Shown: one piece after another, positions 3,127 to 64,000 of the stretch
Layout: the number at the start of each line of letters is the position of its first letter
Numbering within the stretch: the stretch's first letter is position 1
Assembly (NCBI GenBank): GCA_963745405.1
Contig: CAVUWY010000002.1
Location: 2,005,013 to 2,069,012, forward strand
Direction: 5' to 3'
DNA: 64,000 nt
Source: an uncultured Chloroflexia bacterium
GTDB lineage: Bacteria > Chloroflexota > Limnocylindria > Limnocylindrales > CSP1-4
The notes under the pieces: generated by a model
Told to the model about the DNA's origin: nothing
The model's input: the letters and a program-made list of their open reading frames with translations, nothing else
The model's database searches: none
Translations under genes and position numbers: made by a program

Positions 3127-4608
3127 TCAGATGACCTGGGCGAGCCGCTCCGCGAGTGCCTCCGCGATCATGATCGCGATGACGTGGGGGAACCCGGAGG
3201 GCGGCTCCGGGATGATCGAAGCGTCGACGACCGCGAGCCGGTCGACGCCGTGGACTCGACCGAGCGCGTCGACGACGGCATCGCGATCCGGTGACGGTCC
3301 CATCGCGCAGGTCCCGACGACGTGGGGGATCGAATAGGCGTTCTCGACGACGCGTCGGCGCCAGCCGGCCTCGCCGTGTGGACTCGACGGCGGCGCTCCG
3401 GTGCAGAGGCCGCGGATCTCGGGACGCCGCGCGAGTTCCAGGCCGCGGCGATATCCCTCGACGAGGCGATCGACGTCGGCCGGCTCGCGCAGGCCCGGCA
3501 GCTCGATCCGTGGCGGATCAGTCGGATCGGCCGATCGGAGGCGGACCGATCCACGGGAGATCGGCCGGAGGAGGATCGGATCGAGGTAGAACGATGGATC
3601 GTCGGCGGACGGATCGCTGGTCCAGAACATAAGGTCGGCCCCGCGAGCGGGCGCCGCGGAGCTGCGGAACGTCGTGATCGAGTGCAGGATCGGGCCCTTC
3701 GTCGCCCTGCCGCTCCAGCCCGAGGGCAGGTCGACGCCCGGATGGTCGGCGAGGTTCGCGCCGACGCCGGGCAGGTCCACCTGCGGCTCGATGCCGAGCG
3801 GGCGGAGGTCGTCCGCCGGCCCGATGCCGGACCGCATGAGGATCGAGGGACTGCCGTACGTCCCGGCCGCCAGGATCACCCAGCCGGCCCGGATCCTCGT
3901 CCCGTCGACGAGCTCGACGCCGGTCGCGCGGTCGCCATCGAGCGTCACCCGCGCGACGACCGAGTCGGCCCTGATGGTGAGCTTCGGCCAGCGCCGATCG
4001 AGTGGCAGATAGGCATCGGCGGTCGTCGCTCGCACGCCGTCGCGTGAGCTCATCGGCATCCGCCCCGTGCCGATCGCATCCGGGGCGTTCAGATCCTCGA
4101 CGCGCGGGTAGCCGAGCCCGTCGAAGGCAGCCAGCGCCGCGGCGTGGATCTCGGAGACCGGATGGTCGGAGTAACGGGTGATGGGGATCGGTCCGCTGTT
4201 CCCGTGCCACGGGTCGTCGCCGAACTCCGCGTCGGACTCGAGGCGCCGAAAGGCCGGCAGGACATCGTCGAAGCCCCAGCCGGCGTTGCCCCTGGCCGCC
4301 CAGGCATCGAAGTCCGCCGCCGCGCCGCGGACGCCGAAGCGCGTCAGCCACGACGTCCCGCCGAGGAGTCGGCCGCGGCGGAGTTGCCGGGTCGCCCCGG
4401 TCGCGTCGGGCTCCGACTCGAACCCCCAGTCCGGGATCGATGGCAGGTTCCAGCCGTCCCGAAGCGCCGCTGGAGTGACCTCCCGCAGGTCCGGTCCCGC
4501 CTCGAGCAGCAGGACGCGTCGCTCGCCCCACTCCGCGAATCGCCGGGCGAGCACGCAGCCGGACGCACCGCCGCCGACGATCGCGATGTCGAAGTCGTCA
4601 CGTTCCAT
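3127..4608 (-). CDS. GMC-family FAD oxidoreductase (choline-dehydrogenase-like)
   Basis: N-terminal DFDIAIVGGGASGCVLARRFAE Rossmann motif and full-length GMC architecture (493 aa). Confidence 0.85.
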   Translation of the reverse strand: MERDDFDIAIVGGGASGCVLARRFAEWGERRVLLLEAGPDLREVTPAALRDGWNLPSIPDWGFESEPDATGATRQLRRGRLLGGTSWLTRFGVRGAAADFDAWAARGNAGWGFDDVLPAFRRLESDAEFGDDPWHGNSGPIPITRYSDHPVSEIHAAALAAFDGLGYPRVEDLNAPDAIGTGRMPMSSRDGVRATTADAYLPLDRRWPKLTIRADSVVARVTLDGDRATGVELVDGTRIRAGWVILAAGTYGSPSILMRSGIGPADDLRPLGIEPQVDLPGVGANLADHPGVDLPSGWSGRATKGPILHSITTFRSSAAPARGADLMFWTSDPSADDPSFYLDPILLRPISRGSVRLRSADPTDPPRIELPGLREPADVDRLVEGYRRGLELARRPEIRGLCTGAPPSSPHGEAGWRRRVVENAYSIPHVVGTCAMGPSPDRDAVVDALGRVHGVDRLAVVDASIIPEPPSGFPHVIAIMIAEALAERLAQVI

Positions 4609-52721: not shown

Positions 52722-53585
52722 TCACCCGAGGCGCTCGACGTATCGCCGCCGCCACTCCTCCGTCGGCCCGACGTTGTTGAACGTGTAGAGATGGAAGTCG
52801 ACGACCCGGGCGACCGGGTCCGCGGCGATCGGCCCGATCCCGTCGAGCAGCCCGTCGGGCCGGTAGAAGCCGCCGGAGCGGATGAGGCGGGCCACGAAAC
52901 GGGCGTTCTTCGACAGGAACCGATGCGTGTCGGCGACCCCGATGCGTGCCGTGATCGCCAGCAACCGGTGCGGCTCGGCCACGCCGGGGATACCGATGTG
53001 GACCGGGAGCTCGAGGCCCTCCGCCCGCCGCGCGTCCAGCCACGAACGGATCGCCGACGGGTCGAAGCACAGCTGGGTCGTCATGTAGCTGGCGAAGCCG
53101 GCCTTCGCCCGCAGCGCCTCGAGAAGCGGCCCGTCGGCGATGAACGGGTGACCCTGCGGGTAGCACGGCACGCCGATCTCGGTGAGCGGATGTCCGATCT
53201 CGGCCATCGCCCGGAGGAGCGCGAGACCGTCGACGAACTCCCCCGGCTCCTTCGCATCCCCCCCGACGATGAACGCTCGGTCGGCCCCGACCCCTTCGAG
53301 CCAGGCGAGGAGGTCGCGGAGGTGGCCCCGATCCCGGATCATCCGCGCGGAGAGATGGGGGACCGCCCGGAAGCCGGCCGCCTGGAGCTGCTCGCACAGG
53401 GCGACCGTCGCCTCGATCCCCTTGGCCGGCGATGCCGTGACCGAGATGGTGGCCCCGGCCGGCAGGGCGGCCGCCTGCTCGATCGTGTTCTTGAGCGGGA
53501 TCAGCTCGAACGTGGGCTCGCGAAGGAGGGCGAGGATCGCGGCCCGGGCATCGACCGAAAGCCCCGAGTGGCGACGGAAGAGCAC
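52722..53585 (-). CDS. metF: Methylenetetrahydrofolate reductase (MetF-like)
   Basis: FELIPLKNT..., VPHLSAR, CYPQGHP motifs. GTG 53585 lies 4 nt after the MttB stop. Confidence 0.8.
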   Translation of the reverse strand: MLFRRHSGLSVDARAAILALLREPTFELIPLKNTIEQAAALPAGATISVTASPAKGIEATVALCEQLQAAGFRAVPHLSARMIRDRGHLRDLLAWLEGVGADRAFIVGGDAKEPGEFVDGLALLRAMAEIGHPLTEIGVPCYPQGHPFIADGPLLEALRAKAGFASYMTTQLCFDPSAIRSWLDARRAEGLELPVHIGIPGVAEPHRLLAITARIGVADTHRFLSKNARFVARLIRSGGFYRPDGLLDGIGPIAADPVARVVDFHLYTFNNVGPTEEWRRRYVERLG

Positions 53586-53589
53586 CGCC

Positions 53590-55128
53590 TCAGACTTCCG
53601 AGTCGGGCAGGACGGCCTTCCGCTTGACGATGAACTCGAGGAGGGCCTCGTCGATGGCGTCGTCCATCGGCGGCGCCTCGTACTCGGCGAGCATCCGCTT
53701 CCAGATGGCGTTCGCCCGCTGGGAGGCGTCGAGGCTGCCGTCCTCGAGCCACTGCTCGAAGCTGTTGTTGTCGGCGATCTCGGAGCGGTAGAACGCCGTC
53801 TCGAAGTTGGCCAGCGTATGGGCCGTGCCGAGGAAGTGCTGGCCCGGTCCGTTCGCGATGATCGCGTCGACGGCCTGGCCGTTCTCCGAGAGATCGATGC
53901 CCTTGACGAAGACGGCGGCCATCCCGCATTGGTCGACATCGAGGATGAACTTCTCGTAGCCGATGGCGAGGCCACCCTCGAGCCAACCCGCCGCGTGGAG
54001 GACGAAGTTGACCCCGGCGAGGATCGTCGGGCCGAAGGTCGCCGCGGACTCGTAGGCCGCCTGGGCATCGGCGATCTTCGAGGCACACAGGTTGCCGCCG
54101 GAGCGGAACGGGACGCCGAGCCGCCGGGCGAGGGCGGCCATCGCGTAGAGGACGAGGGCCGGCTCCGGTGTCCCGAACGTCGGCGCGCCCGACTGCATCG
54201 AGATCGAGCTGGCGAACGAGCCGAGGATGACCGGCGCCCCCGGTCGGACGAGCTGGGTGAAGGCCATCCCGCCGAGCGACTCGGCCAGCGTCTGGGCGCA
54301 GACGCCGGCCGCCGTGACCGGGGCCATCGCCCCGGCGAGGATGAACGGGGTGATGACCGTGGCCTGGTTCGCCTCGGCGTAGGCCCGCGCCGAGCCGAGC
54401 ATCGTCCCGTCCCAGACGAGAGGGGAGTTGGCATTGATGAGGCTCGTGATGACCGTGTGGTCCTCGAGGTAGTCCTCGCCGAAGAGGATCCGGGCCATCG
54501 CCACCGTGTCGCGCGCCCGGTCCGGGTGCGTCACCGAGCCCATGAACGGCTTGTCCGAGTAGCGCATGTGGGCGTAGACCATGTCGAGGTGCCGCTTCTG
54601 GACCGGCACGTCGACGGGCTCGCAGACCGTCCCGCCGCTGTGGTGGAGGTGCGGGGTCATGTAGGCGAGCTTCACGAAGTTGCGGAAGTCCTCGATGGTG
54701 CCGTAGCGGCGGCCGTTGTCGAGATCGCGGACGAACGGGGTCCCGTACGACGGCGCGAAGACCGTCGCGTCGCCGCCGATGCGGACGCTCCGCTCCGGGT
54801 TGCGGGCGTATTGGACGTACTCGCGCGGCGCCGTCGCCTGGACGATCGAGCGGGCGAGGCCGCGCGGGAAGCGGACCCGCTCGCCGGTCACGTCGGCCCC
54901 GGCCTCGCGGAAGAGCCGCAGCGCGTCGGGATCGCCGCGGAAGTCGAGGCCGACCTCCTGGAGGATCGTGTCGGCGTTGTGCTCGATGATCGAGAGGCCC
55001 TCCTCGTTGAGGACCTCGAACGGAGCAAAGGTGCGTGTCAGATACGGCACGTAGGCGTCGTGCGAGTGCGCCCGCAGCGCCCGTCGCGCGTCGCGCCCGC
55101 CGGATCGGCGACGTGGTGCCTCGTCCAT
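53590..55128 (-). CDS. MttB-superfamily methyltransferase, non-pyrrolysine type (quaternary amine:corrinoid methyltransferase candidate)
   Basis: 513 aa with full-length similarity to the trimethylamine methyltransferase family. No in-frame TAG. Confidence 0.9.
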   Translation of the reverse strand: MDEAPRRRSGGRDARRALRAHSHDAYVPYLTRTFAPFEVLNEEGLSIIEHNADTILQEVGLDFRGDPDALRLFREAGADVTGERVRFPRGLARSIVQATAPREYVQYARNPERSVRIGGDATVFAPSYGTPFVRDLDNGRRYGTIEDFRNFVKLAYMTPHLHHSGGTVCEPVDVPVQKRHLDMVYAHMRYSDKPFMGSVTHPDRARDTVAMARILFGEDYLEDHTVITSLINANSPLVWDGTMLGSARAYAEANQATVITPFILAGAMAPVTAAGVCAQTLAESLGGMAFTQLVRPGAPVILGSFASSISMQSGAPTFGTPEPALVLYAMAALARRLGVPFRSGGNLCASKIADAQAAYESAATFGPTILAGVNFVLHAAGWLEGGLAIGYEKFILDVDQCGMAAVFVKGIDLSENGQAVDAIIANGPGQHFLGTAHTLANFETAFYRSEIADNNSFEQWLEDGSLDASQRANAIWKRMLAEYEAPPMDDAIDEALLEFIVKRKAVLPDSEV

Positions 55129-57206
55129 CAGCGTGTCTCCCTCGATCCGGCTGCCACGACCCGTCGTCGCCGCCGCTCCGCCCGGCCCTGCGGTCCCTCG
55201 TCGGTGATCGAGCGGGCAGTCGGCAGTTCGACCGCCGCTCGGAGATGCGGGTAGGCGGCCGTCCGGTGGGGGAACGCCATCGCCTCGACGAAATGCTCCT
55301 GGAAGCGCGGCTCGATCGCCGTCTCGATCTTCTCCACCCGCCGGACGACCTGCTCGATCTCCCGCCGTGCGGCACCCGACAGGAGGGCGATGAGGGCGCC
55401 GGTCCCGGCGGCGTTGCCGGCCGGCGACGCGTCGGCGGGGTCGCAGTCGGGGATGAGGCCGAGGACCATCGCGTGAAGGAGGTCGATCTGGCTGCCGAAC
55501 GCGCCGGCCAGGCGGATCTCCTCGACCTCGTCGACCCCGAGGTGGTCCATGAGCAGCCGGATCCCGGCGTACAGGGCCGCCTTGGCGAGCTGGATCGCCC
55601 GGACGTCGTTCTGGGTGATGACGATCCGCGGCGCGCGCGTCGCCCCGGGCTCGATCGGCTCGGCGGGCTCGTGGAGGACGTAGCTGAAGGTCCGGCCGTC
55701 GGGGACGACCCGTGGGCTCCGGGCGGTGAGACTGCCGTCGACGATGCCGTCGGCGGTGATCACCCCGGCGAGGAACAGCTCGGCGATGGCCTCGACGATC
55801 CCCGACCCGCAGATGCCGGTGACGCCGAGCCGCCGCTCGACCGACTCGAACCCGGGCTCGTCCGACCAGCGCGGTGAGCCGATCACCCGGAACCGTGGCT
55901 CGAGTGTCTCGCGGTCGACCCGGACCCGCTCGATGGCACCCGGCGCTGCCCGCTGGCCGCTGCTGATCTGGGCGCCCTCGAAGGCGGGCCCGGTCGGGCT
56001 CGATGCGGCCAGCAGCCGGTCCTTCGTCCCGAGGACGATCTCGGCGTTGGTCCCGACGTCGACGGTGACCCGGACGCGCTCGGCCCGCTGGGCCTCCTCG
56101 GCGAGGATCACCCCGGCCGTGTCGGCGCCGACGTGGCCGGCGATGCAGGGCAGGACGTAGACCCGGGCGCCGGGGTGGACGCCGCCCACTTCGATCTCCG
56201 CCGCGGTCGTGTGGACGGCCCGATCGGTGGCGAGGGCGAACGGCGCGGATCCGAGGGGGACCGGGTCGATGCCGAGCAGGAGGTGATGCATGATCGGGTT
56301 GCCGACGACCGACAGCTCGAGGATGTCCTCGCCGTCGATGCCGCCCGACGTCGCCAGCCCGGCGACGAGGCTCGTCAGGGCGTCGCGGACGGCCCGCGTC
56401 ATCTCGACCGCCCCGCCGTCGTGGAGCATCGCGTAGCTGACCCGGCTCATGAGGTCCTCGCCGAAGCGGATCTGCGGATTCATCACGCCGCTGCTGGCGA
56501 GGACCGCCCCACTGGCGAGGTCGGCGAGGTGGCCGGCGATGGTCGTCGAGCCGACGTCGATGGCGACCCCGTAGGCCCGATCGTGGAGGCCGGACCAGAT
56601 GCCGATGACGGAGCGCCCGTCGTGGACGGCGACGGTCACCCGGCCGCCGTCGTGCTCGAGGGCCGGCTGCAGCGCCCGGACGACCTGGAGATCGGCCTCG
56701 AGGCCCTCGAGGGCCCAGTCGCGCTGCAGCTCCTCGAACAGGCGGGCGAGATCTCCTCCCGGCCGGGCGAGCTCGGCCGGTGGCACGACGACGTAGTAGA
56801 GCCGGATGACGGGGTCGACGACGAACTCGCGGACGTCGAGGCCCTTGCGGACGACCTGGCGATGAACCTGGCTCTCCGGTGGGACATCGATGAGGACGTC
56901 GCCGTGGAGCTGAGCGGTGCACGACAGCCGCCGATCGTCGGCGAGGCCACGGGCGTTCCGATACTCGGTCTCAAGGGCGCCCGCCGGCGAGAGGTGATCG
57001 GGGGCGGAGGTGATGCCGTGCTTGGGGAACGTCCCGCCACCAGGCGTCACCTGGCAGCGGCCGCACAGGCCGCGGCCGCCGCAGACCGAGTCGATGTCCA
57101 CGCCGAGGGCGCGGCCCGCATCGAGGACGGTCGTGCCCTCGGGGAACCGGCCCCGCCGCCCCGACGGGGTGAAGATGACGAGCGGTTCGGCGGACGAGGA
57201 GGCCAT
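55128..57206 (-). CDS. Corrinoid reductive activase (RamA-like: 2Fe-2S ferredoxin + ASKHA ATPase domain)
   Basis: N-terminal CGGRGLCGRCQV ferredoxin motif. A long ASKHA body with DVGSTTIAG and DVGTNAEIV phosphate motifs. Confidence 0.85.
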   Translation of the reverse strand: MASSSAEPLVIFTPSGRRGRFPEGTTVLDAGRALGVDIDSVCGGRGLCGRCQVTPGGGTFPKHGITSAPDHLSPAGALETEYRNARGLADDRRLSCTAQLHGDVLIDVPPESQVHRQVVRKGLDVREFVVDPVIRLYYVVVPPAELARPGGDLARLFEELQRDWALEGLEADLQVVRALQPALEHDGGRVTVAVHDGRSVIGIWSGLHDRAYGVAIDVGSTTIAGHLADLASGAVLASSGVMNPQIRFGEDLMSRVSYAMLHDGGAVEMTRAVRDALTSLVAGLATSGGIDGEDILELSVVGNPIMHHLLLGIDPVPLGSAPFALATDRAVHTTAAEIEVGGVHPGARVYVLPCIAGHVGADTAGVILAEEAQRAERVRVTVDVGTNAEIVLGTKDRLLAASSPTGPAFEGAQISSGQRAAPGAIERVRVDRETLEPRFRVIGSPRWSDEPGFESVERRLGVTGICGSGIVEAIAELFLAGVITADGIVDGSLTARSPRVVPDGRTFSYVLHEPAEPIEPGATRAPRIVITQNDVRAIQLAKAALYAGIRLLMDHLGVDEVEEIRLAGAFGSQIDLLHAMVLGLIPDCDPADASPAGNAAGTGALIALLSGAARREIEQVVRRVEKIETAIEPRFQEHFVEAMAFPHRTAAYPHLRAAVELPTARSITDEGPQGRAERRRRRVVAAGSRETR

Positions 57207-57217
57207 CGCGGTCCGGG

Positions 57218-58126
57218 TCAGCCCGCCGCGGCGTCGACCGCGGCCCGGCGGCGGTTCACCCGTCGGCCGCCCTCGCCGTTGGCCGGCGGCTCGCGGAACG
57301 TCCTGATCCAGCGGCCGCACTCGGGGTCGTTGCCGAGCAGGACGTCGCCGCCCATCACCGCGGCCCGGACCTCGGGCAGCAGGGGGTTCGTGATCGCCGA
57401 GGTGAGCCCGTTCGACATCGCCATCGTGAGGAAGGCGGCGTTGATGCCCTCCCGGTTCGGCAGGCCGAAGCTTACGTTCGAGGCGCCGCACGTCGAGTTC
57501 ACCCCGAGCTCGTCGCGGAGTCGGTTGAGGATGCGAAAGACCTGGCGGCCGGCGGACGCCATCGCTCCGATCGGCATGACCAGCGGATCGACGACGATGT
57601 CCTCGCGGGGGATGCCGTGGTCGGCCGCCCGCTCGACGATCTTCTTCGCCACCGCGAAGCGCACGTCCGGGTCCTCGCTGATGCCGCTGTCGTCGTTGGA
57701 GATGGCGACGACCGCCGCGCCGTACTTGCGGACGAGCGGCAGGACCCGTTCCAGCCGTTCGTCCTCGCCGGTCACCGAGTTGACGAGTGGCTTGCCGACG
57801 TAGGCCGCGAGGCCGGCCTCGAGCGCCTCGACGATCGACGAGTCGATCGAGAGCGGGACGTCGACCAGCGACTGGACCAGGCGGATGGTCTGGGCGAGGA
57901 TCGCCGGCTCGTCGGCGAGGGGGATGCCGGCGTTGATGTCGAGCATGAGGGCGCCGGCCTCGACCTGGGCGAGCACGTCCCGCTCGACCCGGCTGAAGTC
58001 GCCCCGCTTCATCTCCTCGGCGAGCGCCTTGCGGCCGGTCGGGTTGATCCGCTCGCCGATGATGACGAATGCGCCGTCGCCGATGACGACCTCGCGGGTG
58101 GCCGACGAGACGACCGTCCTCGTCAC
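57218..58126 (-). CDS. Methyl-tetrahydrofolate:corrinoid methyltransferase (pterin-binding, MtrH/AcsE-like)
   Basis: GERINPTG, DINAG, NSV, SNVSFGLP pterin-binding barrel motifs. GTG start overlaps the upstream stop. Confidence 0.85.
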   Translation of the reverse strand: MTRTVVSSATREVVIGDGAFVIIGERINPTGRKALAEEMKRGDFSRVERDVLAQVEAGALMLDINAGIPLADEPAILAQTIRLVQSLVDVPLSIDSSIVEALEAGLAAYVGKPLVNSVTGEDERLERVLPLVRKYGAAVVAISNDDSGISEDPDVRFAVAKKIVERAADHGIPREDIVVDPLVMPIGAMASAGRQVFRILNRLRDELGVNSTCGASNVSFGLPNREGINAAFLTMAMSNGLTSAITNPLLPEVRAAVMGGDVLLGNDPECGRWIRTFREPPANGEGGRRVNRRRAAVDAAAG

Positions 58127-58473
58127 GCGTCGACCTTCTTGCCGAGCGTCTCGTCGTGGGCTGGCGGCAGGGCCGGGCCGCCGTCGACGCCGCCGGACTG
58201 GATGAGCTGGGCGAGGCGGTGCTTGTCGTACTCCGTCTCCAGGCGGGTGACCTCGGCCGCTACCTCGGTCTCGATCTCCTCGCCGCACGGCCGGGCGACC
58301 CGTCGCCACTCCTCGATGTACTCGTTGTACGACCGCTTGCCGGCCCGGCTGGCGGCCTTGTCGATGGCGACCTGGAAGCGGGGATGGAGCACTTCCTTGC
58401 TGGCCCGCCGCCCGTCGCGGGCGAGGACTTGGGCGGGGATGTCGCGCCACCAGATGACGGTGAGCTGGGCCAT
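58123..58473 (-). CDS. Small conserved hypothetical protein (117 aa) of corrinoid methyltransferase clusters
   Basis: MAQLTVIWWRDIPAQVLA... From memory it resembles the Pfam 'virulence factor' family. Tightly coupled on both sides. Confidence 0.55.
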   Translation of the reverse strand: MAQLTVIWWRDIPAQVLARDGRRASKEVLHPRFQVAIDKAASRAGKRSYNEYIEEWRRVARPCGEEIETEVAAEVTRLETEYDKHRLAQLIQSGGVDGGPALPPAHDETLGKKVDA

Positions 58474-58475
58474 CC

Positions 58476-59129
58476 TCAGGCGGCCTCGACCGCCGCGGCG
58501 CCCGCTGCGAGCTCGAGCGCCGAGCGCATCGATGTCGCCAGCTCGCCGAGCCCGGTGTACCGCCGCTCCAGGGGCAGGCCGAGTCGGTCGGCCGCCGCGC
58601 CGGCCGCCTCCGTCAGCGCATCGTCCTCGGTCTGGGCGAGGTAGACGACCCGGCGGTAGTTGGCGAAGTAGACGTCGCGCAGCTCGGGATGACGGTCGAG
58701 CCCGAGGCCGCGTACGACGAGCCGCTCGAAGTTGCGGACGAGGAAATCGGTCAGGTAGAAGGTGCCCGGCTCCTCCTCTGCAAGATCGGCGAAGGCGGCC
58801 CGGCCCGCGTAGACCTCGTAGCAATGGGCGCCGGCGAGTCGCTCGACGCCCTCCGCTTCGAGGACCCGATCGAGGAGCCCGCCGGTCCCGCAGTCGGCAT
58901 AGGCGACGAAGATCCGGTCGTGGGTCGCCCGCCCCGCCCGGATCCGCTCCTGGACGGCGGCCGGGATCCCGCCCGGACGATCGTGCAGGCTCGCCGGCAG
59001 GCAGGAGATCGTCACGTTGGCCAGGGCGGCCTGGCGGACGATGGCGACAAGCTCGGTGGCGAGGGCGCCGCAACCGATGACGAGGACACGGGGGGCGGCC
59101 GGCGTGGCAGCCCGACCGCGCGGGATCAC
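58476..59129 (-). CDS. DUF1638 domain protein
   Basis: VLVIGCGAL...ADCGTGG...HCYE pattern typical of DUF1638. GTG 59129 lies 10 nt after the corrinoid-protein stop. Confidence 0.65.
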   Translation of the reverse strand: MIPRGRAATPAAPRVLVIGCGALATELVAIVRQAALANVTISCLPASLHDRPGGIPAAVQERIRAGRATHDRIFVAYADCGTGGLLDRVLEAEGVERLAGAHCYEVYAGRAAFADLAEEEPGTFYLTDFLVRNFERLVVRGLGLDRHPELRDVYFANYRRVVYLAQTEDDALTEAAGAAADRLGLPLERRYTGLGELATSMRSALELAAGAAAVEAA

Positions 59130-59139
59130 CTGAGTGATC

Positions 59140-59835
59140 TCAGGCGACGCCGGCACGGCGGCGGTCGACGAGCGTGCGGGCCGTCTCGGCGGCGATCGCG
59201 GCATCGCGGCAGTACGCGTCCGCCCCGACGGCCATCCCGAACTCCTCGTTGAGCGGCGCGCCGCCGACGAGGACGATGTAGTCGTCCCGGATGCCCCGCG
59301 ACTTGAGCGCCTCGATGACGACCTTCATGTACGGCATCGTCGTCGTGAGGAGGGCCGACATGCCGAGGATGTCGGGCTTGTGGGTCTCGAGCGCCGCCAG
59401 GAACTTGTCGGCATCGGTGTTGATGCCGAGGTCGAAGACCTCGAAGCCGGCGCCCTCGAGCATCATCGCCACGAGGTTCTTGCCGATGTCGTGGATGTCG
59501 CCCTTGACCGTCCCGATGACGACCTTGCCGACGGGCTTGGCCCCGGTCTCGGCGAGGAGCGGCCGGAGGATGCCCATGCCGGCCTTCATCGCGTTGGCGG
59601 CGAGGAGGACTTCGGGAACGAAGAGGATGCCGTCGCGGAAGTCGATGCCGACGATGCGCATCCCCTCGACGAGGGCCTCATTGAGGACGCGCTCGGGACC
59701 CCAGCCCCGGCCGAGGAGGATATTCGTGCCCTCGACGATCTCGGCGGCCATGCCGTCGTAGAGGTCGTTGTGCATCTGCTCCGTCAGCTCCTCGTCGGAG
59801 AGACTGGCGAGATCGAGCTCTTCGTCGTCGGCCAT
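59140..59835 (-). CDS. Corrinoid (B12-binding) protein, MtgC/MttC-like
   Basis: B12-binding-2 cap domain plus Rossmann domain with the DxHxxG motif (GDIHDIG) and the MSALLTT motif. Confidence 0.9.
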   Translation of the reverse strand: MADDEELDLASLSDEELTEQMHNDLYDGMAAEIVEGTNILLGRGWGPERVLNEALVEGMRIVGIDFRDGILFVPEVLLAANAMKAGMGILRPLLAETGAKPVGKVVIGTVKGDIHDIGKNLVAMMLEGAGFEVFDLGINTDADKFLAALETHKPDILGMSALLTTTMPYMKVVIEALKSRGIRDDYIVLVGGAPLNEEFGMAVGADAYCRDAAIAAETARTLVDRRRAGVA

Positions 59836-59913
59836 GGCGCTGGTCGTATCTCCCGGTATCGAGCCCCCCGCACCCGATGGGGGTTCCCCCCGCCACCCAT
59901 CGAGCGCCGGCTA

Positions 59914-59946
59914 TTCCACCATGCGGAACGGTGCCGTATGATGGAA
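59914..59946. promoter_or_regulatory. Candidate IclR operator: 13-bp inverted repeat TTCCACCATGCGG-N7-CCGTATGATGGAA
   Basis: 11/13 symmetric. It lies in the 145-bp divergent spacer between the corrinoid operon and iclR, 35 bp upstream of the iclR ATG. Confidence 0.4.
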
Positions 59947-59980
59947 CGCGCCGGTGGCAGCGTAGCCCGCGGAGGCGCCG

Positions 59981-60745
59981 ATGTCCAGAGTCCAATCCGT
60001 CGAACGCGCCTTCGCCGTGCTCGGTGCGCTCGCCGACGGACCGCTCGGCGTCACCGAGATCGCCGATCGCGTCTCTTTGCCGAAGAGCACCGTCGCCCGG
60101 CTCCTGCGAACCCTCCAGGAGGAGGACGCGGTCGAGCAGGCGAGCGGCGACAGCCGCTATCGACTCGGCGAGCGGATCGCCTCGCTCGCCGCCGGGGTCA
60201 CCGCCGGTGGGAGCATCGTCTCCATCGCCCGCCCCGACCTCGAGGAGCTCGCGACCATGGCCGGCGAGGCGGCCGGTCTGGCCATCCCCGACGGGTTCCG
60301 AGTCCACTACATCGACCAGGTCGATACGCCGAACGCCGTCCAGGCCCGCGACTGGACGGGTACCCGGGTGCCGATGCACGCGGTCCCGTCGGGCCAGGTC
60401 ATCCTTGCCCACCTGCCGCCGGCCGAGCTGGAGCGTTTCCTCGCCGAGCCGCTCGAGCGGTTCACCCCGCGCACGCTCACCGATCCTCCCGCCCTCCGCC
60501 GACGCCTCGACGAGGTGCGCCTCGAGGGTCTCGCCTGGGTCCACGAGGAGTTCGACCTCGGGATCGACTCCGTCGCCGCGCCGATCCTCGACAGGGGCGG
60601 GTCGGCGGTCGCGGCCATCCACGTTCACGGCCCGTCCTATCGCTTCCCGCGCCGCGACTCCTCCCGGCTCGCCGAGCAGATCGCGGCGGCCGCGGCGGCT
60701 ATCTCCGATCGCCTCGAGCGCACCTCCGGCGGCGCCCGCCGCTGA
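59981..60745 (+). CDS. IclR-family transcriptional regulator
   Basis: SVERAFAVLGALADGPLGVTEIADRVSLPKSTVARLL wHTH plus the effector domain. Confidence 0.85.
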   Translation: MSRVQSVERAFAVLGALADGPLGVTEIADRVSLPKSTVARLLRTLQEEDAVEQASGDSRYRLGERIASLAAGVTAGGSIVSIARPDLEELATMAGEAAGLAIPDGFRVHYIDQVDTPNAVQARDWTGTRVPMHAVPSGQVILAHLPPAELERFLAEPLERFTPRTLTDPPALRRRLDEVRLEGLAWVHEEFDLGIDSVAAPILDRGGSAVAAIHVHGPSYRFPRRDSSRLAEQIAAAAAAISDRLERTSGGARR

Positions 60746-60863: not shown

Positions 60864-62333
60864 GTGCCGGACCTGTTCATCGACGGCTGCTGGACCGCCG
60901 GGTCGTCCGGTGAGATGAGCCCCGTCGTCGCCCCGTTCGACGGTCGGACCCTGACCCACGTCGACGTGGCCGCGGACGACGACGTCCAGGGGGCGATCCT
61001 GGCCGCCCGCCACGCCTTCGACCACGGACCGTGGCCGTCCACGCCTGCCCCCGAGCGCGGCGCACTCCTCGGTCGGATCGCCGACCTGCTCGAGCGCGAC
61101 CTCGAGGAGATCGCCCGCGAGGAGACGAGCAACACCGGCAAGGCCCTCCGCGAGGGTCGCTACGACGTCGAGGATTCCGCCCGCGTCTTCCGCTACTACG
61201 CCGGTCTCGCCGACAAGGACGCCGGCCGGGTGGTGGCGACGGGCACGCCCGGCGCTCTGAGCCGCATCGTCTACGAGCCTATCGGCGTCTGCGCCCTCAT
61301 CGGACCGTGGAACTACCCGCTCCTCCAGATCTCGTGGAAGATCGCTCCGGCCCTCGCCGCGGGCGACACGTTCATCCTCAAGCCGGCCCAGCTGACGCCG
61401 CTCACCGCGATCCACCTCATCCGGCTGATCGAGGAGGCGGGCCTGCCGGCCGGCGTCGGGAACCTCGTCCTGGGTCCGGGCGAACGGGTCGGGCGGGCCC
61501 TTGCCGAGAGTCCGGCCGTCGACTTCGTCTCCCTGACCGGTGGCATCGATGCGGGGCGGGAGATCATGCGGTCGGCCGCCGGCAACATGAAGAAGGTCGC
61601 CTTCGAGCTCGGCGGCAAGAGCCCCAACATCGTCTTCGCCGACGCCGACTTCGAGACCGCGGTCGACAACGCCCTCACCGCCGCGTTCGTCCACTCCGGC
61701 CAGGTCTGCTCGGCCGGCTGCCGGGCCCTCGTCCAGGACGGGATCTACGACCGCTTCGTCGCCGAGGTCGCCCGGAGAACCGAGCTCATCCGCCTCGGCG
61801 ACGGCTTCGACGAGGCGACCGAGGCGGGGCCGCTCATCAGCGAGGCCCATCGCGCCAAGGTGGAGTCCTACATCGAGATCGGGCGGGCCGAAGGTGCGCG
61901 CCTCGTGGCCGGCGGTCGGCGGCCGACGGAGCCCGAGCTGCAGGACGGCTTCTTCGTCCGGCCGACGGTCTTCGCCGACTGCGACCGCGGCATGCGGATC
62001 GTCCGCGAGGAGATCTTCGGGCCGGTCCTCACGATCGAGCGCTTCTCGACCGAGGAGGAGGCCGTCGAAGCGGGCAACGACACGACCTACGGCCTGGCCG
62101 GCGCCGTCTGGACCGCCGACGCCTCACGGGCCCAGCGGGTCGCCTCGAAGCTTCGCCACGGGACGATCTGGATCAACGACTATCACCCGTATCTGCCGCA
62201 GGCCGAGTGGGGCGGCTTCAAGCAGTCGGGCATCGGCCGTGAGCTGGGGCCGACCGGTTTCGACGAATACCGCGAACCGAAGCACATCTACCAGAACACC
62301 GAGCCGGGGCCGTCGGGCTGGTTCGGCGGCTGA
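60864..62333 (+). CDS. NAD-dependent aldehyde dehydrogenase, betaine-aldehyde-dehydrogenase-like
   Basis: GTG 60864 after GAGAGGA. ELGGKSP and SGQVCSAG catalytic motifs. The C-terminal WINDYHPYLPQAEWGGFKQSGIGRELG is typical of BetB-type enzymes. Confidence 0.8.
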   Translation: MPDLFIDGCWTAGSSGEMSPVVAPFDGRTLTHVDVAADDDVQGAILAARHAFDHGPWPSTPAPERGALLGRIADLLERDLEEIAREETSNTGKALREGRYDVEDSARVFRYYAGLADKDAGRVVATGTPGALSRIVYEPIGVCALIGPWNYPLLQISWKIAPALAAGDTFILKPAQLTPLTAIHLIRLIEEAGLPAGVGNLVLGPGERVGRALAESPAVDFVSLTGGIDAGREIMRSAAGNMKKVAFELGGKSPNIVFADADFETAVDNALTAAFVHSGQVCSAGCRALVQDGIYDRFVAEVARRTELIRLGDGFDEATEAGPLISEAHRAKVESYIEIGRAEGARLVAGGRRPTEPELQDGFFVRPTVFADCDRGMRIVREEIFGPVLTIERFSTEEEAVEAGNDTTYGLAGAVWTADASRAQRVASKLRHGTIWINDYHPYLPQAEWGGFKQSGIGRELGPTGFDEYREPKHIYQNTEPGPSGWFGG

Positions 62334-62437: not shown

Positions 62438-64000
62438 TTACTCCGCCGGGATCTCCGCGTGGATCGCGTCCAGGTCGACTCCCTGCGAGCGCCGGACGAG
62501 CCGGGCCACGACGTAGACGACCGCGGCGATCACGTAGATCGCGGCGAGGAATTGGATGGATTGGGTATTGCCGATGCCGATCCCGTAGAGCGGATCCCAC
62601 AGCCACTGATAGATGACCCAGCCGAGGAAGATCGTCGTTATCGCGCCGGCGATGCTGATGATCGGCAGTCCGCCGATCGCATACCGGACGAGGGGCGACT
62701 TCTGATAGATGTCCTTCTTCCACCACGGCAGGATCGTGGCAGCGATCGCAGTCCCGAAGAACGTGACCGCGATGACGAGCGATGCGTCGAGGGTGAGCTT
62801 CGAGAAGCCCGTCACGTACGAGTACAGGTACGAGACGATGACCCCCGGGATCATGATCAGGAGCAGTGCCGTCCACGGCACGCCGCGGTCGGAGACGCGG
62901 GCGGCCCGCTCCGGCAGGACCCGGTCGAAGGCGGCGGCGAAGATCATCCGGGTCGAGGACAGCCAGAGGGTCCCGGCCCAGCCGAGGAACCAGACCCCGA
63001 AGATGATCACGATGATCATCTGGATGAGGTGGTTGTCGATGAGGAACGCCGCCAGCATCGGCGGGTAGCCCCAGATCGGGATCGCCGGTGCAGTGGTGAC
63101 GTAGCCGTAGGCGTAGTTGATGAAGTTGACGTTGCCGGCGTTGAAGAAGTCCCAGCCGAACGTCTTCGCCGCGAGCAGGACGAAGACGATGGCGAGGATG
63201 ATCGTGACCCACAGGCCGCCGAGCATCCCGTTGAGGACCTTGCGGAAGTCGCCGGCCCCGCGGACCTCGCCATAGAGGGTCGCGCCCCAGTTCGGGTAGA
63301 GGATCCAGAACATCATGAACGGCAGGAGCAGCCAGGTCCCGGTCCCGAGCCCGAAGTCGAGCGGCGAGCCGCCGGGCACGAAGGCGTCGTTGGCCACCGC
63401 GTTGTCGATCGTCGCCTGGTAGGCGTTGGCCACGCCGAACAGGCTCTGGCCCTCACGGTCGAAGGCGGTCTTGAAGGCATCCTGTGACCCGACGAGCATG
63501 AGGATGAACATCGCGGCCAGGGCGATGAGGCCGATGTAGAGGCTCACCCGCTGGATCCGGGCGTAGCCGGCCATGCCGAGGGCCACGGCGCCCGAGGCGA
63601 TGATGATCGTGATGATCGAGACGGTGAACGTGCCGGTCGCCGTCCCGAGGAAGGTCAGCAGGTCGGTGGCGCCGGCGATCGCGGCGAGCGGCTGCAGCAC
63701 CTCGATGTTGAGGATGTAGCCGTAGATCGGTGCCCACAGGGCGAGGATGAACCACCAGCCGGTGCTGGACAGGACGAAGCCGATGCCGCCTCGCCGCATC
63801 CCGAGGATCGCCCCGATCACCAGCCCCGCGATGCCGGCGACGATGGCGATGGCATCGCCGAGGGCGAAGGCGTTGGCGGCCAGGTAGCCGGTCAGTCCGC
63901 CGACGAGGGCGGCGACGACGGCCCCGGGGACACCGTCGAAGATCCGAGTCTGCCAGACGTAGTCGCCGCCGGCCCGGGGCATGACGGCGATAAGACCGGC
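62438..64000 (-). CDS. APC-superfamily amino acid/amine permease (5' end outside window)
   Basis: 12-TM pattern. The ORF stays open to the window edge (…AGLIAVMPRAGGDYVW is an internal APC motif). Confidence 0.85.
   Translation of the reverse strand, partial: AGLIAVMPRAGGDYVWQTRIFDGVPGAVVAALVGGLTGYLAANAFALGDAIAIVAGIAGLVIGAILGMRRGGIGFVLSSTGWWFILALWAPIYGYILNIEVLQPLAAIAGATDLLTFLGTATGTFTVSIITIIIASGAVALGMAGYARIQRVSLYIGLIALAAMFILMLVGSQDAFKTAFDREGQSLFGVANAYQATIDNAVANDAFVPGGSPLDFGLGTGTWLLLPFMMFWILYPNWGATLYGEVRGAGDFRKVLNGMLGGLWVTIILAIVFVLLAAKTFGWDFFNAGNVNFINYAYGYVTTAPAIPIWGYPPMLAAFLIDNHLIQMIIVIIFGVWFLGWAGTLWLSSTRMIFAAAFDRVLPERAARVSDRGVPWTALLLIMIPGVIVSYLYSYVTGFSKLTLDASLVIAVTFFGTAIAATILPWWKKDIYQKSPLVRYAIGGLPIISIAGAITTIFLGWVIYQWLWDPLYGIGIGNTQSIQFLAAIYVIAAVVYVVARLVRRSQGVDLDAIHAEIPAE

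Follow-up and report, generated by a model that had tools for sequence, protein, structure and literature searches.

Cobalamin-dependent demethylation of glycine betaine is no longer known from anaerobes only: in the aerobe Ruegeria pomeroyi, MtgC and MtgD are required not only to grow on glycine betaine but also to make methionine, and knockouts of mtgC and mtgD in strain DSS-3 abolish growth on this substrate (Mausz et al. 2025, PMC12478193). Among the proteins that R. pomeroyi induces on betaine are those of PF06253 (MtgB), MetF2 (a metF paralogue) and members of the RamA-like and DUF1638 families, and the corresponding genes are co-located, often with those for later demethylation steps, in Sinorhizobium meliloti and in many marine Alpha-, Gamma- and Deltaproteobacteria; the S. 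meliloti cluster, which has both reactivation modules, was named MtgBCDE (PMC12478193). Because 28 genomes carry both metH and mtgBCD (PMC12478193), the MtgE-dependent use of the methyl group for methionine, usually found where MetH is absent, is frequent but not obligatory. Here we describe a seven-gene operon of the same kind in a 64,000-nucleotide stretch of DNA (the window) from an uncultured Chloroflexia bacterium (contig CAVUWY010000002.1, below C2, of assembly GCA_963745405.1). The operon is a new host and a new layout of the system published in 2025, not a new pathway, and its gene families and linkage make it likely, in our judgement, that it encodes an aerobic MtgBCD-type cobalamin-dependent demethylation system with glycine betaine as the most likely methyl donor. 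An earlier note on this DNA had described MttB-family systems that do not use pyrrolysine as known from anaerobes, a view that the R. pomeroyi work has made outdated.

Frame plots of G+C content by codon position and at third positions, together with start and stop mapping, gave seven consecutive coding frames on the minus strand, running from 59835 down to 52722:

59140-59835, minus strand: g1, MtgC-type corrinoid protein with a B12 cap and a B12-binding domain (PF02310 and PF02607), 231 amino acids
58476-59129, minus strand: g2, DUF1638 protein (PF07796), 217 amino acids, GTG start
58123-58473, minus strand: g3, PF13769 ("Virulence_fact") protein, 116 amino acids, with a 4-nt overlap with the start of g4
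57218-58126, minus strand: g4, MtgD-type methyl-corrinoid:tetrahydrofolate methyltransferase, a pterin-binding TIM barrel of the MetH-Fol/AcsE type (PF00809), 302 amino acids, GTG start
55128-57206, minus strand: g5, ATP-dependent reductive activase for corrinoid proteins, RACo/AcsV type (PF14574, PF17651 and PF17650), 692 amino acids
53590-55128, minus strand: g6, non-pyrrolysine MttB-superfamily substrate:corrinoid methyltransferase, MtgB-like (PF06253), 512 amino acids
52722-53585, minus strand: g7, divergent methylenetetrahydrofolate reductase (MTHFR) paralogue ("MetF2"; PF02219), 287 amino acids, GTG start

All seven frames are free of internal stops and show a codon-position G+C pattern typical of expressed genes, the junctions from g1 to g7 measure +10, +2, -4, +11, -1 and +4 nt, and no terminator-like site was found inside the operon on the minus strand. 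The tight packing of seven minus-strand genes that the earlier note had reported (-4 to +11 nt) is thereby confirmed, in a window whose G+C content of ~70% crowds raw lists of open reading frames with shadow frames.

The three core families of the system, MtgB, MtgC and MtgD, are encoded together. In g1, the Pfam profiles PF02310 and PF02607 score 100.8 and 58.6 bits, respectively, and the base-off/His-on motif DxHxxG, already recognised in the earlier note, is present as DIHDIG at residue 113; the top NCBIfam model is MtgC_2 (207 bits, under the model's cut-off) and the top PDB match is 1Y80 (202 bits). The reading of g4 as a pterin-binding methyltransferase acting between methyl-tetrahydrofolate and a corrinoid protein also held, with 100 bits for PF00809 and 354 bits for NF005719 against a cut-off of 259; its PDB matches include 1Q7M (the Fol domain of MetH) and 2YCK (MeTr) at E ~1e-39, and no structure of Desulfitobacterium hafniense MtgA was among its PDB matches at E<=1e-10. 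For g6, PF06253 scores 753 bits over profile positions 1-499 of 500, and the frame contains neither an in-frame TAG nor any other internal stop, as had been claimed. The closest solved structure is 4YYC (726 bits), labelled "putative trimethylamine methyltransferase", for which our literature search found no paper; D. hafniense MtgB (2QNE/9YCE) follows at ~410 bits and the pyrrolysine-containing MttB (7XCL) at 105 bits. That is, g6 belongs to the non-pyrrolysine branch of the MttB superfamily; we placed it by these scores against PDB entries and by the binding-site residues described below.

The reactivation pair (a RACo-type activase and a DUF1638 protein) and a MetF2-type MTHFR are likewise present, as g5, g2 and g7. 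The activase carries the linker, middle and ASKHA domains of RACo and, at its N-terminus, a plant-type 2Fe-2S pattern formed by Cys42, Cys48, Cys51 and Cys96, and it aligns over its full length (residues 6-649) with RACo of Carboxydothermus hydrogenoformans (3ZYY, E 2e-82), which has the same N-terminal motif and domains. The earlier description of g5 as a RamA-like 2Fe-2S/ASKHA activase is correct as to the cofactor and fold; however, because the archaeal RamA model TIGR04270 reaches only 93 bits, far under its cut-off of 500, compared to 326 bits for AcsV, the protein is better classed as RACo/AcsV-type than as a strict RamA. The two activases differ in their partners, which is CoFeSP for RACo of C. 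hydrogenoformans and the MtgC-type corrinoid protein for g5.

To place the operon among known clusters, we located those of S. meliloti and Paracoccus methylovorus by tblastn of plasmid or replicon records. In both, an MttB-family gene is divergent from the genes for a cobalamin-binding protein and a DUF1638 protein, which are accompanied by genes for an "MTHFR C-terminal domain" protein, an MTHFR, a methyl-tetrahydrofolate:cobalamin methyltransferase and an ASKHA protein. A "virulence factor" gene is annotated as well in the record of S. meliloti. Identity to the two organisms is 72-74% for g1, 65-67% for g6, 62-63% for g4, 55-56% for g5 and 52-53% for g2, with the MtgBCD set at 63-74% to the S. 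meliloti cluster (74% for g1 and 63% for g4); for g3, which was compared with S. meliloti only, identity is 39%. Over the other five of the six shared proteins, identity to the S. meliloti cluster spans 53-74%. The system of Mausz et al. (2025) and the present one share their families (PF06253 MtgB, MtgC, a pterin-type MtgD, a RACo-type activase, DUF1638 and a catabolic MTHFR), an aerobic host and a link to later demethylation steps. They differ in that the present genome is one of Chloroflexota and joins all seven genes in a single translationally coupled operon, and in that the MTHFR is a single divergent protein, similar to S6MTHFR (below), encoded last in the operon, as opposed to a MetV(PF12225)-MetF pair in the middle of the proteobacterial clusters.

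The gene block recurs in related loci. We located homologues of all window proteins by tblastn in 80 such loci; counting those of at least 15 kb, the MttB orthologue has the MtgC, MtgD and activase core next to it in 10/11 Chloroflexota, 11/13 Actinomycetota and 13/27 Proteobacteria, and DUF1638 and PF13769 accompany the core in 9/11, 6/13 and 13/27, respectively. The order common to Chloroflexota, Actinomycetota and the window is IclR<>MtgC-DUF1638-PF13769-MtgD-activase-MttB-MetF2. By comparison, the two proteobacterial loci that we examined (L053:14313-15790 and L072:13265-14808) have a MetV-like PF12225 protein and a canonical-type MetF between PF13769 and MtgD, and no homologue of g7 was found in the 27 long proteobacterial loci.

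Taken in outline, the methyl route that the earlier note had proposed (substrate to Co(I), to tetrahydrofolate, to methylene-tetrahydrofolate) is supported by the gene families and by the published orthologous clusters. In the mechanism that we favor, g6 would bind a quaternary amine that carries a carboxyl group (glycine betaine being the most likely) and present one N-methyl group to the Co(I) of g1, giving dimethylglycine and methyl-Co(III); g4 would pass the methyl group from g1 to tetrahydrofolate, and g7 would turn methyl-tetrahydrofolate into methylene-tetrahydrofolate for C1 oxidation or assimilation. Corrinoid oxidised to Co(II), presumably a frequent event in an aerobe, would be re-reduced by g5 with ATP, with g2 and possibly g3 as accessory factors in this step. 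Dimethylglycine would go on to a neighbouring flavoenzyme of the dimethylglycine dehydrogenase (DMGDH) type, delivering electrons to EtfBA and hence to the respiratory chain, and a BetB-like dehydrogenase and a permease could together make betaine from an imported precursor. The required B12 would be taken up, not synthesised.

Alternatively, g1, g4, g5 and g2 might serve mainly as a split methionine synthase, with g4 running in reverse, a separate homocysteine-binding MtgE taking the methyl group and betaine demethylation being secondary. The same proteins are indeed essential for methionine synthesis in R. pomeroyi and in Phaeobacter inhibens, whose split methionine synthase (PMC5764234) shares with our operon distinct B12-binding and pterin-binding proteins as well as DUF1638 and a RACo-like activase, and the genome has two matches to stand-alone PF02574-type homocysteine methyltransferases (C2:1477519-1478382 and C2:1494154-1495059). 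However, the first of these matches has an internal TGA, neither an MtgE-like gene nor any other homocysteine-binding subunit is encoded in or beside the operon, and the last two genes of the operon, which is linked to DMGDH-EtfBA, encode an MttB and an MTHFR of catabolic type. Further, the genome encodes a full-length MetH (1663 bits, model positions 2-1182 of 1182), so that methionine synthesis has no need of the operon, in contrast to the situation in R. pomeroyi, and a split enzyme would be superfluous. Hence, we regard this alternative as quite improbable, and the coexistence of a full MetH with an operon that has no linked MtgE indicates that a dual role in methionine synthesis is not required here.

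The case for glycine betaine as the substrate of g6 draws on the genes around the operon and on the predicted binding site. The neighbouring features are:

59836-59980, no strand assigned: divergent mtgC-iclR intergenic region, 145 bp, with presumed promoters and operator (sequence reading)
59981-60745, plus strand: divergent IclR-family regulator (PF09339 and PF01614)
60864-62333, plus strand: BetB-like aldehyde dehydrogenase (PF00171, 561 bits)
62438-64000, minus strand: APC-superfamily permease (PF13520), possibly extending beyond the window end
C2:2070893-2075266 (window-equivalent 65881-70254), beyond the window end: DMGDH-type flavoenzyme, EtfB and EtfA

The permease frame stays open to window-equivalent 64228 in the genome, and metallophosphoesterase and NUDIX genes separate it from the DMGDH-type gene. 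The latter, ~6 kb beyond the operon, encodes an 847-amino-acid protein with DAO, FAO_M and GCV_T domains (dimethylglycine/sarcosine dehydrogenase type), with the genes for EtfB and EtfA next in line. Of the 24 long Chloroflexota and Actinomycetota loci, 8 have EtfBA upstream of IclR; in five out of five relatives (three Chloroflexota and two Actinomycetota) the best DMGDH orthologue (65-86% identity) is directly beside EtfBA-IclR-operon, and DMGDH is directly adjacent in three more loci (L037, L038 and L105). Since the linkage recurs in relatives of two phyla, the DMGDH-EtfBA unit is no local accident. The BetB-like neighbour has betaine-aldehyde dehydrogenase (BADH) as its top NCBIfam model (TIGR01804, 623.6 bits vs. 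a cut-off of 668.6).

Mutagenesis, together with a structure containing the ligand, has defined the betaine site of D. hafniense MtgB (Picking et al. 2026, PMC13080624): cation-pi contacts come from Y97 and F356, the loss of which raised the Km ~800-fold, and the carboxylate is held by R312 and H348. We mapped these residues onto g6 by HMMER alignment to 2QNE (chain numbering offset 16) and scored their conservation over 76 g6 orthologues from three phyla. Y97, R312 and H348 correspond to Y128, R342 and H378 of g6 and are invariant in the 76 orthologues. That is, the carboxylate-binding pair is kept and the aromatic pair is incomplete, with only the tyrosine present. The anaerobic MtgB/MtgC/MtgA system of D. 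hafniense (2QNE, 9YCE; PMC13080624) thus shares with ours a non-pyrrolysine MttB-family TIM barrel with three of the four betaine-site residues, as well as the general logic of a corrinoid protein and a second methyltransferase acting on tetrahydrofolate; it differs at the fourth residue, in its tetrahydrofolate methyltransferase, which here is of the MetH-Fol/AcsE type, and in its host, which here is an aerobe. While the earlier note had left the substrate unassigned, the DMGDH-EtfBA linkage, the BADH-like neighbour and the retained binding residues allow glycine betaine to be assigned provisionally.

Several observations weigh against this assignment and, to some extent, against the wider reading of the operon. 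The equivalent of F356 is G386 in g6 and glycine in all 76 orthologues, and for this reason we do not file g6 as a strict MtgB; W382, four residues upstream of G386 and also invariant in the 76 orthologues, may substitute for the missing cation-pi contact, judging from the alignment. Overall similarity to D. hafniense MtgB is moderate (~410 vs. 726 bits for 4YYC), and sequence similarity does not settle specificity in this superfamily in any case, given that MtyB and MtcB, at 53% identity, have different substrate preferences. The BADH-like gene adjoins the operon only in this genome and not in the related Chloroflexota and Actinomycetota loci, no BCCT transporter was found in our search, and the sole OpuAC match is far from the operon and in two pieces. 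As discussed below, the direction of the g7 reaction rests on context, and the residues highlighted in its closest characterised relative are replaced.

It is conceivable, accordingly, that the same machinery serves a methyl donor other than glycine betaine, such as proline betaine, carnitine/gamma-butyrobetaine, choline/phosphocholine, dimethylglycine or trimethylamine. The glycine at the F356 position and the MtyB/MtcB precedent would fit such a donor, as would the finding that in characterised MttB members with different substrates R312, and in many cases H348, is likewise retained while the aromatic pair is not (PMC13080624), and the presence of up to 11 MttB paralogues in relatives. Against it stand the retention of the Y97, R312 and H348 equivalents together, the DMGDH-EtfBA linkage conserved in two phyla, the BADH-like neighbour, which fits betaine, and the S. 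meliloti orthologue, which belongs to the core MtgBCDE cluster near bmt and a gene for a glycine betaine/proline ABC transporter ATPase. In addition, a paralogue elsewhere in the genome is a better candidate for a different substrate. On balance, we consider another donor unlikely, although the possibility carries real weight, and we retain glycine betaine as the preferred substrate.

The paralogue in question is an orphan outside the window (C2:1721517-1723034), 40% identical to g6, with glycine and glutamine at the positions of MtgB Y97 and H348, and it probably acts on a different substrate from g6, as these replacements suggest. It sits between a DUF4032/Kdo-kinase-like gene and a DUF6855 gene, with a D-lysine 5,6-aminomutase alpha-like gene 2.4 kb upstream, and lacking a dedicated corrinoid protein it would need to use g1 as well. 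In Eubacterium limosum, too, one corrinoid protein serves MttB-family paralogues (MtpB, MtcB, MtyB and MthB, with MtqC, MtqA and RamQ) whose substrates are acidic quaternary amines, bound through the same conserved arginine, although E. limosum is a strict anaerobe and acetogen and uses other substrates. Relatives of the same family as the host (genomes G002, G062 and G098) have 8-11 MttB-family matches each, several in tandem, implying a wider range of methylated substrates in the lineage.

The last gene, g7, had been called MetF; the family assignment stands, yet with PF02219 reaching just 25.5 bits it should be considered a divergent MTHFR. Its best PDB match is 7XG9 (E 2e-35, compared to ~1e-4 for the canonical MetF of T. 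thermophilus), which is S6MTHFR of Sphingobium lignivorans SYK-6, an enzyme that oxidises the methyl-tetrahydrofolate produced by a tetrahydrofolate-dependent demethylase and defines a "type 4" group encoded beside demethylases (PMC11868366). The context is similar in that both are encoded beside a demethylase that yields methyl-tetrahydrofolate; the partner of S6MTHFR is LigM, whereas that of g7 is, unlike LigM, corrinoid-dependent. In g7, S, M, I, I and T replace the five residues highlighted in S6MTHFR (L48, R78, F215, C219 and P268, respectively), and hence membership in type 4 is not established; we infer from the context that g7 would work in the direction of methylene-tetrahydrofolate. 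A canonical MTHFR domain is encoded elsewhere in the genome, which makes g7 a dedicated paralogue; it is found at C2:1979965-1981704, in one 690-amino-acid open frame together with a homocysteine S-methyltransferase domain (a YitJ-like fusion).

Regarding the host, the genome (3.2 Mb in 4 contigs, 71% G+C, estimated completeness 85%) was described in the earlier note as of a high-GC actinobacterial type. This did not hold: the closest relatives of the MttB, the DMGDH and the operon are in Chloroflexota, with Actinomycetota second. The closest homologues of g6 (78-90% identity) are from metagenome-assembled genomes labelled Ca. Limnocylindrales or "uncultured Chloroflexia", followed by Actinomycetota (Gaiellales, Thermoleophilia and Acidimicrobiales, 72-77%) and Proteobacteria (68-72%), and the neighbouring DMGDH gives the same order of phyla. 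Hence, the genome most likely represents Chloroflexota of the class Limnocylindria. Across 121 sampled genomes of this class, MttB genes occur in 24 of 35 genomes of the host's family, compared to 1 of 85 genomes of other families.

The host also appears to respire oxygen, with a haem-copper oxidase subunit I (COX1, 449 bits) in addition to the DMGDH linked to electron-transfer flavoprotein. The COX1 match, at C2:1590542-1591877, falls in two pieces in different frames, reflecting either a frameshift or an assembly error. The genes that the earlier note had cited for an aerobic lifestyle include OsmC and a GMC oxidoreductase, both of which are in the window; the GMC gene (3127-4608) is 50 kb away and was not counted as linked to the operon. 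As MttB-family systems were first characterised from strict anaerobes, one could suspect that the operon is inactive, or a relic used in anaerobiosis only, with its Co(I) chemistry failing in an oxygen-respiring cell. This is hardly credible in view of the intact frames with their codon-position G+C typical of expressed genes, the 78-90% identity of g6 across many Chloroflexota and its retention throughout much of the host's family, the presence of a dedicated activase, and the aerobic function demonstrated in R. pomeroyi. We therefore continue to read the operon as a working demethylation system of an aerobe.

Such a system depends on cobalamin, for which we found uptake genes but not the biosynthesis markers CbiC and CobS in this genome (85% estimated completeness). 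The uptake genes are as follows:

C2:511176-514308, minus strand: adenosylcobalamin riboswitch and Peripla_BP_2/FecCD/ABC_tran (BtuFCD-like) operon

The riboswitch, upstream of the BtuFCD-like genes, matches RF01482 with 59 bits (gathering score 50, E 3e-9), and the generic model RF00174 is sub-threshold at the same site (24 bits). B12 is thus probably imported rather than made, which suggests a B12 auxotroph and is an apparent difference from the system of Mausz et al.

As for regulation, 9 of the 11 long (>=15 kb) Chloroflexota loci have an IclR orthologue (>=45% identity) adjoining the operon. The mtgC-iclR spacer contains one 15-nt imperfect inverted repeat (59867-59881/59896-59910) and TTCCA/TGGAA-type half-sites near 59914-59946, all of which are possible IclR operators as far as the sequence can tell; no match to the sigma-70 consensus promoter was found in the spacer.

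The two remaining proteins, g2 and g3, are those for which a role is least obvious. The DUF1638 assignment of g2 is as the earlier note had it (PF07796, 99 bits). Residues C20, H49, D79, C80, H102 and C103 are invariant in 32 orthologues and C43 is conserved in at least 90%; the conservation of four cysteines and two histidines suggests a metal or Fe-S site, and the AlphaFold2 model (mean predicted local distance difference test, pLDDT, 92.8), a two-lobed Rossmann-like fold, makes a site between the lobes a reasonable guess. The fold matches many unrelated families at Z ~8, and we attach no function to the individual matches (Asp/Glu racemases, the best at Z 8.6; the cobalt chelatase CbiK, E 7e-3 and TM-score 0.31), which are generic. 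Genetic data for P. inhibens showed that DUF1638 works with a RamA-like (DUF4445) protein, both being co-fit with the split methionine synthase of that organism, and no specific function was offered for DUF1638 (Price et al. 2018, PMC5764234). By analogy, g2 is genetically implicated as a partner of the RamA-like activase.

The earlier note had listed g3 as a conserved open reading frame of 117 amino acids. It is indeed conserved; its length is 116 amino acids, and it belongs to a family that had gone unrecognised, PF13769 (67 bits), with W9, R10, I12, P13, Q15, L29, F33, Q34, A36, D38, A41, Y52, L87 and G95 invariant. The AlphaFold2 model (pLDDT 90) has a four-stranded sheet and three helices and no fold relatives in the PDB at E<=0.001 by Foldseek (best Z 3.5 with VIA-align), and our search of the literature turned up no mention of PF13769. 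Within the host's family, the class sample has 20 genomes with a PF13769 match, and these coincide exactly with the 20 that have a high-scoring MttB orthologue; at least 14 of the 20 have both genes on one strand, separated by 3-5 kb. These counts are not independent because the genomes are related. PF13769 is not strictly tied to MttB, however, since it also matches our Bacillus subtilis control, which is without MttB. In Chloroflexota, Actinomycetota and Proteobacteria the gene lies between DUF1638 and MtgD (or MetV), and such neighbours, MtgD or MetV-MetF, suggest that its role is in the folate part of the system. Apparent PF13769-MtgD fusions in two loci (L049 and L058) were rejected as artefacts of extended and open frames in GC-rich DNA. 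It is tempting to speculate, and we do so only tentatively, that the PF13769 protein (100-130 amino acids), misnamed a "virulence factor" and here translationally coupled to g4, might be an obligatory but unrecognised subunit of oxygen-tolerant corrinoid methyl-transfer systems, which may act with DUF1638 in protecting or re-reducing the corrinoid or in coupling MtgD to the MTHFR.

In conclusion, aerobic B12-dependent demethylation of glycine betaine, described so far in marine and rhizobial Proteobacteria, extends on our reading to Actinomycetota and to the Limnocylindria-like Chloroflexota that are abundant in soil and freshwater. These lineages encode the whole route in one compact operon linked to DMGDH-EtfBA. 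The operon layout provides clean material for studying the roles of DUF1638 and PF13769, the pair that we consider the best remaining lead, as well as how betaine may be bound without the aromatic residue at the F356 position. With MetH, B12 import and apparently no synthesis of B12 in this genome, the lineage would use a common osmolyte in a way that depends on B12.

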